A stretch of DNA of 50,738 bases from a virus (lineage: Duplodnaviria; Heunggongvirae; Uroviricota; Caudoviricetes). Under the pieces are notes generated by a model. The model made no database searches. It was not told the DNA's origin and saw nothing but the letters and a program-made list of their open reading frames with translations. Of this stretch, positions 33,346-36,280 are shown piece by piece. Location of the stretch: IMG/VR virus record IMGVR_UViG_3300010279_000007; one strand, 5' to 3'. The position numbers and the translations under genes were made by a program. Numbering within the stretch: the stretch's first letter is position 1; each line of letters opens with the position of its first letter.

Positions 33346-33855
33346 ATGGGGCACAATAACACTAAGGGAAACCGTAAATTTATTAAGGGCCGCTATACTG
33401 CCAACGCGGCCAAAGGCGAACGACTGGTATCTTCTGAATTCCAGCTCACTTTTGCAGGCCATGAAGATATCAGCGTACTGGTTCGCACGTCGCAAATTCC
33501 TGAAATGACCCGCGAGGATGTGGAGGACTATGGTCCGAATGGTGTGAAGTTCAACCAGCACGGTCCAATTCGAAACTCTGGGGAAATCCAGGTCCAGTGC
33601 GTGGAGACTATCGAAGGCGATATTCTTCAGTTCATTAAAGATCGCATTGCGGCGAAGGACTATGTTGATATCACGATGGCTGCTACCCCTGAATCCAAAT
33701 CTTCCGGGGTTAACGCTGTGACAAAAGCTGCTACAACAATTGAAATGTTGGACTGCAAAATCTACAGTGATGCAATCGACTTTAGTACCGAAGATGTGAC
33801 TGCCGCTGTGCGCCCGTCACTTCGTATCGTCTACAACTGGATTGAGTGGGATTAA
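33346..33855 (+). CDS. tail tube-fold protein
   Basis: 169 aa; FQLTF...IQVQCVETIEGDILQFI pattern resembling T4 gp19-type tube proteins. Confidence 0.4.
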   Translation: MGHNNTKGNRKFIKGRYTANAAKGERLVSSEFQLTFAGHEDISVLVRTSQIPEMTREDVEDYGPNGVKFNQHGPIRNSGEIQVQCVETIEGDILQFIKDRIAAKDYVDITMAATPESKSSGVNAVTKAATTIEMLDCKIYSDAIDFSTEDVTAAVRPSLRIVYNWIEWD

Positions 33856-33870
33856 GAGTCATCCCTTGTA

Positions 33871-33899
33871 TTTTAAAGCTCCTTCGGGAGCTTTTTTAT
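33871..33899. terminator. bidirectional intrinsic terminator
   Basis: AAAGCTCC-TTCG-GGAGCTTT with A-run before and T-run after; between tail operon and hok. Confidence 0.7.
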
Positions 33900-33971
33900 T
33901 TGGAGAGGAAAGGGTGCATTGAGGATACCTGACACACGAAGAGTGGCGAGGATCTCTCCCCGCCAGGTCTC

Positions 33972-34127
33972 TTACCTTTCAGATTCGTAGGCTGTGAAGA
34001 CAGTGACCTCCGTCTGGCCGGTTCGGATTCGTACCTCGCAGAGGTCTTTCCTCGTTACCAGTGCCGTCACAATGACGGTTAAACAGATGACGATCAGAGC
34101 GATTAACATCGCTTTTTGCTGCTTCAT
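33972..34127 (-). CDS. hok: Hok/Gef-family type I toxin (51 aa)
   Basis: MKQQKAMLIALIVICLTVIVTALVTRKDLCEVRIRTGQTEVTVFTAYESER aligns with plasmid R1 Hok (TRKSLCEIRYR...AYES). Confidence 0.75.
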   Translation of the reverse strand: MKQQKAMLIALIVICLTVIVTALVTRKDLCEVRIRTGQTEVTVFTAYESER

Positions 34128-34185
34128 AGCCTGCTTCTCCTTGACCTTTTGGTCGGTAAGAGGCTAATCTACGTATGCTAAGCAT
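33979..34185 (-). CDS. mok-like overlapping reading frame
   Basis: 68-codon ORF in alternative frame covering hok and starting 58 nt upstream. Confidence 0.3.
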   Translation of the reverse strand: MLSIRRLASYRPKGQGEAGYEAAKSDVNRSDRHLFNRHCDGTGNEERPLRGTNPNRPDGGHCLHSLRI

Positions 34186-34308
34186 AGATATGGCCTCAGA
34201 TTAATGTTAAGCGTCTTGCAGGACGCGTAATGTTATCTGGGGCTTTCTTCTATCTGCTTTTCGGGTAATGCCTGAAGCAGATAGCCTCAAGCACCCGCAA
34301 CGATTGTA

Positions 34309-34554
34309 TCAATGTCTGGCTTTTTTTCTATAGAAATCACCTGGAAGGGTGAATATCCACATCAGAAGAAATGTTGCAGCAAACATGATCCCTAATGGCC
34401 AGACCGCGCCAAAGAAAATCCATACTAAGATCTCCTCTGCTTGTTCTTTGCGGTCGATATCGACAAGCATTTTTCGGCTGAACATGTATACACAGAAGCC
34501 AATACAAACATATCCTGCAAAAGCGATCGCTAACTGTAAAAAATCAGATTGCAT
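34309..34554 (-). CDS. small membrane protein (81 aa)
   Basis: GAGG RBS before internal ATG; two hydrophobic helices. Confidence 0.4.
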   Translation of the reverse strand: MQSDFLQLAIAFAGYVCIGFCVYMFSRKMLVDIDRKEQAEEILVWIFFGAVWPLGIMFAATFLLMWIFTLPGDFYRKKARH

Positions 34555-34604
34555 CTCCGACCTCAAACTGAAAACGCCAGGTGACTCCAGATTAGAGCAA
34601 TCTA

Positions 34605-35450
34605 TCACCCTCTGAATCCTGCCGGTATACCCCATTGTTCGTTATCTTTATTTTTGGCTAAAACCGCATTAAGAGCTTCGTTTACCGTCATGCAATGCGG
34701 CAGATTATCGAAGTTTGATACCCCGCCAATATCAGGAGAACGCTTGTTCTTCAGGTAAGCATATTTCCGCGCTGCCGCCTCTACCTTCTGCTTGAACTCA
34801 TGTTTTTGAGTGCGTTTTTTGGATAACCGCAGATTGTCAGCCTTTGCTTTTGCCTCAGCGATCCATGAAGTCAATTTTTTGAGTCTGGTCGTTCCGGCAC
34901 CGCCGGAAACTGATCTTTTTGTTTTTTTAACTTGTGACTTCTTATTCTTTATTGCCACGTCATCCTGACAGGGGGAGGGGGTATCATTTTGACATGGGGG
35001 TGTGGATAAAAAATTAAATAAAGCCAATGTCTTAGCGAGAACAGCTTTAACCTTGGTTGCCGCTGAAGAGATCTTTAATTTGCTTTCAATCAGCGCATTT
35101 TTGGCTTGTTGTGCGAAGGCCAAAAAGGATGGTGTAAACCGGTACAGGTTAGCGCGACGTTCACGGTGATCGCCGATAACAATCTCTACAGACAGAATTC
35201 CTTTGTTTACAGCTTCACGGAATGCACGAACGACGGTTGATTGGCTATAACCAGTTTCTGCCGCGATCAGGCGGTGAGGCTTGTGAATGAAGTATTCACT
35301 GGTTGTTGCCGCGAGATTTGCACATTGCGACAGGATATGCCCGGCGCTACGGGATAGACCGGAGTGTGTTACAAAGCAGGCCAATTCATAGCCAGAAAAA
35401 GTAAAATCGCTCATCGTTATACAGCTCAGGAAAGTGACTTTAGCCAGCAT
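34605..35450 (-). CDS. repL: RepL-like lytic replication initiator
   Basis: 281 aa; helix-turn-helix region; immediately downstream of kilA in the same operon. Confidence 0.6.
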   Translation of the reverse strand: MLAKVTFLSCITMSDFTFSGYELACFVTHSGLSRSAGHILSQCANLAATTSEYFIHKPHRLIAAETGYSQSTVVRAFREAVNKGILSVEIVIGDHRERRANLYRFTPSFLAFAQQAKNALIESKLKISSAATKVKAVLAKTLALFNFLSTPPCQNDTPSPCQDDVAIKNKKSQVKKTKRSVSGGAGTTRLKKLTSWIAEAKAKADNLRLSKKRTQKHEFKQKVEAAARKYAYLKNKRSPDIGGVSNFDNLPHCMTVNEALNAVLAKNKDNEQWGIPAGFRG

Positions 35451-35479: not shown

Positions 35480-36280
35480 TTAGCGCGTTGCCGCGACAGG
35501 TACCAGCACACCAGCATCAAGCAATCGCTTCATCAGCCACTGCTGACCTTTGCCGGTTATACGAGTCGTGAAAGAAATCCTGCTTCCATTGCTTGTATCG
35601 ATCACGGTTTCTTTAAGGGTGAAATACCCACGGGATATGTATTCTTGTTTGGGGACGTTCCTGCGTTCACCGGTTGCGATCAGAATTCCGTTATCACGCA
35701 ACCAGGTGAAGAGATAGTTTTGGCCCAGGCCGAGCACTTTGGCATAGTTGCCGATTAGAACCCCGCTGGCGGTAGCAACGCGTTCGGCGAATTCGACTTT
35801 AGGTGCATCCATCAGCATTTTTTGCTCCAGCCGTTGCTTTTGCTCTGCCAGGTCAGCAGCCAAACGGAGAGCTTCTGGGAGGCTCTTCGGAATAGCAGGT
35901 TGTAATCTTCCGGCTCGATAGTCGATAAATGTCTGGTTTACCTTCAGCCGAAACGCGGGAGAAATCCAGCCTGCGTACTCCACTGCGAGCAATTCATGGG
36001 CAAAAGTGCCGCCGCCACGGCCTTCGAACGAAACTATGCAATTCTGCATAGTTTCTTTTTCAAGCTCTTCGATGAGCTGTTTGGCTGACAGCGTTCTTAG
36101 CCATTGAGCTGGCGCTTTATGGGCACCGAGTCCGCTCGCTCTGTGTAGAGCATTAAGGTTGTAACGGCCAGCGCGGTCGGTCGTAATTTCAACACCACAA
36201 ATAACGGGCAGAGTGGTTGAAGGATCGACATTTTGATGAAGGTTTGATATATTCATATCCGCATTGAATGTTTGTTGCAT
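35480..36280 (-). CDS. kilA: KilA (KilA-N domain plus antirepressor-type C-terminal domain)
   Basis: 266 aa; N-terminal VICGVEITTDRAGRYNLNALHRASG; C-terminal half homologous to Ant C-terminus. Confidence 0.8.
   Translation of the reverse strand: MQQTFNADMNISNLHQNVDPSTTLPVICGVEITTDRAGRYNLNALHRASGLGAHKAPAQWLRTLSAKQLIEELEKETMQNCIVSFEGRGGGTFAHELLAVEYAGWISPAFRLKVNQTFIDYRAGRLQPAIPKSLPEALRLAADLAEQKQRLEQKMLMDAPKVEFAERVATASGVLIGNYAKVLGLGQNYLFTWLRDNGILIATGERRNVPKQEYISRGYFTLKETVIDTSNGSRISFTTRITGKGQQWLMKRLLDAGVLVPVAATR

Follow-up and report, generated by a model that had tools for sequence, protein, structure and literature searches.

Known hok/sok systems and the locus of a P1-like phage-plasmid

The archetype of the type I toxin-antitoxin modules of the hok/mok/sok kind is the parB locus of plasmid R1 and of IncF plasmids, from which the steps of 3′ mRNA processing and of post-segregational killing are known. 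Related loci of the hokD (relF) type reside in prophages and chromosomes of Escherichia coli, the K-12 copy of hokD in the Qin prophage being reportedly devoid of the promoter, mok and sok. The hokW-sokW locus of the Stx2 phages Sp5 (VT2-Sakai) and 933W is an experimentally shown type I toxin-antitoxin pair, in which hokW is toxic and sokW neutralizes it from its own promoter, tested by mutation, with RNase III and Hfq partly needed for this neutralization (PMC8621323). In P1 itself, the presumed job of killing the cells that lose the plasmid prophage belongs to phd-doc, a type II system that acts through protein-protein interaction, has no relation to hok/sok in sequence or mechanism and ranks with the best-conserved genes of P1-like phage-plasmids (PMC9603915). 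Here we analyze a hok locus situated around positions 33900–34330 of a 50,738-nt stretch of viral DNA (IMG/VR record IMGVR_UViG_3300010279_000007; hereafter, the window), which is a portion of a P1-like phage-plasmid. This locus very likely belongs to the HokD/HokW subfamily as an intact type I module of the hok/mok/sok kind, placed in the variable region between the genes bplB and repL and serving as a second post-segregational killing module beside phd-doc. The reading proceeds from the sequence and fold of the locus, and takes its activity from R1 hok/sok and hokW-sokW.

The locus was compared with hokW-mokW-sokW of 933W and with an R1-type hok/sok locus of an IncF plasmid, the latter being retrieved with a query that was 100% identical to thousands of plasmids. 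Judging from the nucleotide and protein alignments, hokW-sokW of Sp5/933W is the closest studied relative: the 933W locus shares 87.6% nucleotide identity with that of the window from the hok −10 element to fbi, HokW is identical to the window Hok at 47 of 51 residues, and both loci have the same tac, near-identical fbi, the same long Sok hairpin and a temperate phage as the carrier. They differ in that mokW of 933W is, because of a 1-nt indel, in frame with hokW (Mok representing Hok with a 19-aa leader), whereas mok of the window, like that of R1, occupies the +1 frame. Several positions also differ in the recognition region, that is the Sok 5′ tail and the mok start. Finally, the carrier of the window locus, unlike that of hokW-sokW, is a plasmid prophage, and killing of cured cells is therefore a realistic role. 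A hok locus of a Rac prophage displayed 91% nucleotide identity, and among 5,426 complete E. coli genomes, 4,748 contained loci, mostly chromosomal, that are 80–95% identical over positions 33912–34299. RefSeq calls this very open reading frame (ORF) hokD; unlike the K-12 copy of hokD, the window copy is complete.

The R1-type toxin is much more distant, with only 22 of 52 Hok residues identical, while the elements of the R1/IncF locus share order and spacing with those of the window: tac, the 5′ hairpin, the mok Shine-Dalgarno sequence and ATG, the Sok promoter between the mok and hok starts, the hok Shine-Dalgarno sequence, the 3′ hairpin and fbi. The minimum-energy architecture of the R1-type mRNA is the same, mok and hok likewise overlap in different frames, compensating GGCGC/GCGCC preserves the tac-fbi pairing, and the leader hairpin has its equivalent in CUUUCUGCC/GGCAGAAAG. 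The two loci diverge in the Sok terminator hairpin, which is ~13–16 nt longer in the window, in the spacer of the Sok promoter (18 nt in the window versus 17 nt) and in the length of the mRNA (~385 nt versus 396 nt).

Toxin gene, mRNA fold and predicted Sok RNA

The toxin gene hok (33972–34127, minus strand; ATG at 34127) encodes a 51-aa peptide, MKQQKAMLIALIVICLTVIVTALVTRKDLCEVRIRTGQTEVTVFTAYESER, the N-terminal stretch of which is hydrophobic according to its hydropathy. The peptide matched the complete Pfam profile HOK_GEF (PF01848, positions 1–42 of 42) with E = 2.4e-22 and 78.7 bits at a cut-off of 22, as well as PHROG 251 (‘MokW-like host killing’) with E = 4.9e-32, and the hok Shine-Dalgarno sequence aligned with those of the R1-type locus and hokW. 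The mok frame of 68 codons (33979–34185, minus strand), predicted to be translated, begins with the ATG at 34185, has GAGG 8 nt upstream and overlaps hok in the +1 frame; it matched PHROG 37205 (E = 8e-21), and its start aligned with those of mok in R1 and 933W. Neither Mok nor the product of orf81, the gene upstream of hok, had a match in Pfam or NCBIfam. A plus-strand ORF of 57 aa (33994–34167), antisense to hok, was taken as a by-product of the hok frame. The Tyr47 codon UAC of hok (33987–33989, A at 33988) is followed by G, giving UACG, the motif reported for TadA A-to-I editing (Tyr to Cys) in the hokB, hokC, hokD and hokE mRNAs (bioRxiv 10.1101/2025.08.07.668861). A TadA-editing hairpin around Tyr47 was considered and rejected, since the prediction gave no stable local hairpin around the motif.

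The predicted hok promoter (34303–34330, minus strand) consists of −35 TAGAAA (34330–34325), a 16-nt spacer and the TG-extended −10, TGATACAAT (34311–34303). In the promoter scan it had 9 of 12 matches and TG ahead of the −10, which aligns with TAGAAT of hokW; this TG is supplied by the TGA stop of the upstream orf81. The predicted full-length hok mRNA of ~385 nt (33912–34296, minus strand), delimited by homology, begins with GGGUGCUUGAGG at its 5′ end and runs through fbi, and would be ~425 nt long when reaching the next terminator-like hairpin. The homology to hokW and to chromosomal hokD-type loci has the same limits (query 263–650, that is window 33912–34299); as the similarity spans the region from the hok −10/+1 to fbi, the conserved unit is exactly the transcription unit. 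The Rfam model RF01794 (‘sok’) matched the minus strand from 34296 to 34122 over its full length (model positions 1–157 of 157) with 114.9 bits at a gathering score of 59 and E = 7.9e-27. Since the consensus of this model ends at the hok start codon, it runs in the sense of hok mRNA, and the match therefore certifies the hok leader, Sok being its complement. Other Rfam matches in the region, namely CRISPR-DR46 (at the bplB terminator), ceN48, sbrA and a plus-strand ‘sok’ of 21 bits, were far under the gathering scores and were taken as chance.

In the minimum-energy fold of the 385–425-nt mRNA, the extreme 5′ end was paired with fbi. The folding model of R1 expects two alternative partners of the 5′ end, one in the closed full-length mRNA and the other in the opened truncated mRNA, and for the 5′ 14-mer of the window the best partner in the whole mRNA was fbi (−21.0 kcal/mol), followed by the adjacent local hairpin (−20.6 kcal/mol). 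Accordingly delineated on the minus strand are tac (34285–34296), which is the 5′ end GGGUGCUUGAGG; its complement fbi (CCUCAAUGCACCC, 33912–33924), recognized by fold and covariation; the 10-bp leader hairpin CUAUCUGCUU ... AAGCAGAUAG (34250–34284, arms 34250–34259 and 34275–34284), also recognized by fold prediction and covariation; and, on the same grounds, the GC-rich hairpin GGCGGGGAGAGAUCCUCGCC of the 3′-untranslated region (3′-UTR) between the hok stop and fbi (33944–33965), which probably blocks 3′ trimming.

Covariation was assessed with 80 hok loci from viral contigs, 61 of them distinct, which together with the window and the R1-type locus made up an alignment of 63 loci. The structure of the window was paired in 92.8% of the cells, versus 36–43% with the partners slid by 1–3 columns; 22 pairs were changed on both sides, versus 6–8 in the slid versions, and none of 500 shuffles reached the observed values. 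The tac-fbi pairing (helix 1) was retained in 99.1% of the cells, with a compensatory change in the R1-type row. The leader hairpin (helix 2) contained two compensatory pairs (AU to GC or the reverse in 8 sequences, CG to UA or the reverse in 11), and five pairs of the 3′-UTR hairpin (helix 17) were altered on both sides in relatives.

The predicted Sok promoter (34141–34170, plus strand) comprises TTGACC (34141–34146), lying between the start codons of hok (34127) and mok (34185), an 18-nt spacer and TAATCT (34165–34170), and aligns position for position with those of the R1-type (TTGCGC, 17 nt, TATCCT) and hokW loci. The predicted Sok RNA of ~71 nt (34177–34247, plus strand), the coordinates of which were carried over from sokW annotated in 933W, has a single-stranded 5′ tail of ~15 nt, followed by a long hairpin and the U-rich tail CUUUCUUCU, and is complementary to the mok start region; the Sok region is identical to sokW at 64 of 72 positions. 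The 86-nt stretch 34177–34262, which includes Sok, forms a long hairpin plus a U-rich tail, the folding energy being −36.7 kcal/mol and the z-score −5.2. Leaders of the HokD/HokW type vary most just after the mok ATG, that is in the Sok 5′ tail (alignment columns ~150–175, window ~34165–34190), and this variation partly co-varies with a 3′-UTR segment (helix 6). Such leader variation fits diversifying Sok-target specificity among otherwise near-identical loci.

A type I module of the hok/mok/sok type had been proposed here by a sequence-only reading, made without database searches, and the Pfam and RF01794 matches, the sokW alignment, the fold and the covariation bear this out. The 51-codon minus-strand ORF of the Hok/Gef family, for which that reading had suggested a profile search, the overlapping 68-codon mok-like frame and the plus-strand TTGACC hexamer at 34141 between the hok and mok starts were all recovered as described above. 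The 10-bp hairpin in the leader proved real as well, with its position, given as 34251–34286, being off by 1–2 nt, and fold prediction of the leader yielded this hairpin together with the pairing of the 5′ and 3′ ends.

By analogy with R1 hok/sok and hokW-sokW, the weak extended −10 promoter would give rise to a stable hok mRNA of ~385 nt, in which pairing of tac at the 5′ end with fbi at the 3′ end would render the mRNA untranslatable and closed to Sok. Slow 3′ trimming to the 3′-UTR hairpin would then open the leader. In plasmid-carrying cells, the short-lived Sok (~71 nt) would bind the mok start region and block the translation of mok and, via coupling, that of hok, after which RNase III would cut the duplex. 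Upon loss of the plasmid prophage Sok would decay first, and Hok, presumably a 51-aa inner-membrane peptide, would be made and kill the cell.

Several points weigh against this interpretation. The support for this copy is at the level of sequence and fold. The −10 of the Sok promoter, TAATCT, matches the consensus at only 3 of 6 positions, and the promoter is under the threshold of the consensus scan. The NCBIfam models matched, those of the Hok subfamily and HokA, scored under their curated cut-offs, with 49.5 bits versus 73 and 38.1 versus 89, and contributed nothing beyond Pfam; the NCBIfam scan gave no hokD equivalog match, and the RefSeq name ‘hokD’ must therefore be based on another rule. 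The tested structure was derived from the own sequence of the window, and the 63 loci are for the most part closely related, so that part of the covariation signal is to be expected from that alone. Recent spread, and not selection, may account for the high identity of the P1-like copies. Lastly, chromosomal hok loci with intact-looking elements gave no post-segregational killing in previous studies, as summarized in bioRxiv 10.1101/2025.08.07.668861, and intact sequence is thus no guarantee of killing.

The bplB-repL variable region, its cargo and distribution

As the sequence-only reading had it, the locus lies between the tail operon and repL: on the one side is the tail/baseplate gene bplB (33346–33855, plus strand), with pmgG likewise on the plus strand near the locus, and on the other are repL (34605–35450, minus strand) and kilA (35480–36280, minus strand). 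In local blastn, the homology to P1 (NC_005856) broke at 33897, just past the bplB terminator, and resumed at 34591, just past repL. According to this alignment and the P1 annotation, a 693-bp segment carrying hok/mok/sok and orf81 (33898–34590) replaces a segment of P1. Between the bplB terminator and the repL end, the reference phages P1 and P7 carry at this site the pmgF-rlfB-rlfA segment, which in P1 is 1,826 bp long, comprises these three genes and has no sequence similarity to that of the window. A 5-kb query matched NC_005856 at one place only and nowhere else at the sensitivity of megablast. The reference P1 is without the hok locus at this site; the comparison with P1-like reference genomes suggested beforehand ended, for P1, in pmgF-rlfB-rlfA being found instead of hok. 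The bplB-repL site is variable region 5, one of eight recognized in P1-like phage-plasmids (PMC9603915). Other cargo occupies it in RCS47, SJ46 and vB_EcoM-673R5, and in pSvP1 rlfA-rlfB-pmgF were described as replaced by two ORFs, an antibacterial toxin among them (Venturini et al. 2019, PMC6906374).

The borders of the segment bear on its proposed end at a bidirectional terminator. The hairpin at 33875–33894, which passed the terminator scan on the plus strand only, is the terminator of the bplB tail/baseplate operon. On the minus strand, UUUAAAAU follows the stem, which acts there as a weak terminator at best; the plus-strand half of the earlier proposal therefore stands, and ‘bidirectional’ is weakly supported. 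Moreover, because the P1 homology extends to 33897, the alignment assigns this hairpin to the P1 backbone, outside the hok cassette. The right-hand breakpoint falls within the C1 operator Orlf (Op55; window 34585–34601, minus strand), which reads ATTGCTCTAATCTGGAG in the window versus ATTGCTCTAATTATAAC in P1, with the first 11 of 17 bases kept, and the P1 promoter PrlfA, located downstream of Orlf, is absent from the window.

The ORFs in 33900–34330 had no Phd/YefM or Doc (Fic-fold) match in Pfam, and tblastn of the window with Phd and Doc sequences found nothing; the reason is that the window begins ~5.5 kb past phd-doc of the related plasmid pLAO38. The latter possesses a 100% identical hok cassette and phd-doc at 65,375–65,976, and the window is collinear with it from ~71.4 kb, phd-doc being ~5.5 kb outside the corresponding part. 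As pLAO38 with the identical cassette carries phd-doc, hok/sok is to be regarded as a second addiction module. Of the earlier surmise of an ‘additional or overlooked’ killer locus, ‘additional’ therefore holds, and ‘overlooked’ fails in view of the RefSeq name hokD and the remark in PMC6906374.

The bplB-hok-orf81-repL arrangement was found in at least 206 PLSDB plasmids, out of ~515 carrying repL; of the 5,426 complete E. coli genomes, 187 had it. The phages phi456 and Ro157c2YLVW and three records named ‘P1’ contain hok cassettes that are identical or nearly so. RefSeq/PGAP labels the identical ORF of hundreds of P1-like plasmids as hokD, ‘type I toxin-antitoxin system toxin’. In MH422554 (4113–4268) the 51-aa hok ORF is annotated as ‘MokW’, the locus is unannotated in phi456 (4001–4481) and two of the ‘P1’ records, and mok and Sok are annotated in none of these phage records. 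A literature search for a dedicated account of hok/sok in P1-like elements returned only the passing ‘antibacterial toxin’ remark (PMC6906374). The hok locus is thus already known, with near-identical copies in hundreds of records and a characterized closest relative. In the 134-kb IncHI1B plasmid NZ_CP073989.1 (3001–3475), the hok segment (window 33950–34424) together with bplB-like genes is flanked by insertion sequence (IS) elements, and the hok segment with bplB-like genes is also present in larger plasmids of other replicon types. This points to a transfer of the locus into other backbones by P1-derived fragments or cointegrates.

The gene orf81 (34309–34554, minus strand), lying between repL and hok, encodes 81 aa with two hydrophobic segments, as judged by hydropathy. 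It matched PHROG 3772 (function unknown) with E = 2.6e-53, profile positions 1–81 corresponding to residues 28–108 of a longer, 108-aa version in the ORF listing, which starts inside repL. In the phage collection, orf81 was confined to P1-like phages, SJ46 having a copy with 44% identity at the corresponding site. It is a neighbor of the toxin-antitoxin module, not a component. The idea of orf81 and hok as one travelling cassette was discarded, orf81 being present also in the hok-less SJ46 and 673R5 and absent beside hokW. A weak terminator-like hairpin (34337–34352, minus strand) with a 5-bp stem and the tail TTTCTATAGA is located within the 3′ end of orf81, just ahead of the hok promoter, and is the sole candidate barrier to kilA-repL read-through into hok.

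Five states of the site were encountered among P1-like elements: intact hok/sok, hok/sok with IS186 inserted, orphan sok, rlfAB as in P1, and other cargo. Two of them are variants of the locus itself. In some plasmids, a 1,338-bp IS186 is inserted into the 3′-UTR hairpin between the hok stop and fbi (window 33950–33960; NZ_CP122864.1, 1153–2510), with the transposase start MNYSHDNWSAIL and the flanking direct repeat GGATCTCTCC(C), the same repeat as was reported for pSvP1 (PMC6906374). Such an insertion would detach fbi from the hok mRNA, thereby removing the fold-back lock. In vB_EcoM-673R5 (~3655–3917) and RCS47 (3663–3922), the part retained (window 34162–34424) comprises the promoter and leader of hok, the mok ATG and the entire Sok RNA region including its −10, the hok coding region is lost to an unrelated plus-strand gene, and a new −35-like TTGCTC is situated 18 nt upstream of TAATCT. 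The Sok remnant of this type might be an orphan antitoxin, acting as an ‘anti-addiction’ device against hok-bearing relatives.

Alternative roles and significance of the module

The same module could act chiefly in the lytic cycle, a possible though rather doubtful role, which is compatible with post-segregational killing: Sok would vanish on induction, and Hok would hit the membrane early, resulting in faster growth arrest and lysis and a higher phage yield. This is what hokW-sokW, with a toxin so close to that of the window, is reported to do in Sp5, where after mitomycin C treatment sokW RNA vanishes and HokW appears ~1 h before endolysin, and where deletion of hokW-sokW halves phage release (PMC8621323). 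However, the Sp5 effect is a modest, two-fold one, P1 possesses its own holin, endolysin and lysis-control genes, and laboratory P1 without hok lyses well. The position of hok is also in line with a lytic role, since it is directly downstream of, and in the same orientation as, the lytic-replication genes kilA-repL-orf81, the P1 counterparts of which, kilA-repL, are repressed by C1 through OrepL, and only the weak hairpin with the 5-bp stem (34352–34337) separates the repL unit from hok. That hok/sok is, by virtue of this co-oriented position downstream of C1-controlled kilA-repL-orf81, wired into the P1 lytic switch beyond passive addiction seems distinctly improbable to us. Were it so, the Sok promoter would fire head-on into kilA-repL-orf81 transcription, and read-through on induction would interfere with Sok synthesis and give 5′-extended hok transcripts unable to close by tac-fbi pairing; the timed Hok burst would aid growth arrest and lysis, which would offer a mechanistic route to the hokW effect in Sp5.

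Unlikely, in our opinion, is a role chiefly in abortive infection, in which an invading lytic phage would stop host transcription, Sok would decay, and Hok would kill the cell before the invader matures, sparing sister lysogens. Hok/sok of R1 reportedly excludes T4, a result ascribed to Pecota and Wood in 1996 that speaks for this role. A survey of Hok proteins found hok enriched in prophages and raised a role in defence, but it revealed no hok enrichment beside known defence systems (bioRxiv 10.1101/2025.08.07.668861); the site itself is a variable region, the cargo of which differs between P1-like elements (PMC9603915). We likewise consider it unlikely that the locus is a silent passenger, intact in sequence, not killing cured cells, having no measurable phenotype and persisting through recent acquisition with its backbone. 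Silence was reported for several chromosomal hok loci (bioRxiv 10.1101/2025.08.07.668861), and P1-like elements tolerate IS186 between hok and fbi in a subset of plasmids, have lost the hok coding region entirely in others, and already possess phd-doc in this element type. On the other hand, the window has every regulatory element intact and a conserved fold, hokW-sokW, a near relative, is active, and the locus is retained in a large share of natural P1-like plasmids.

An intact hok/mok/sok module mediating post-segregational killing, which we regard as the best explanation of the locus, does not reveal a system of a new kind; it represents a well-known kind in clean and intact form, within a recognized variable region. 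It would nevertheless correct the picture based on laboratory P1, in that a large share of natural P1-like phage-plasmids appear to hold a second, RNA-regulated killer module beside phd-doc. Such elements spread extended-spectrum β-lactamase (ESBL) and other resistance genes, and the module would bear on plasmid persistence, on competition among P1-like elements and on attempts at their curing.

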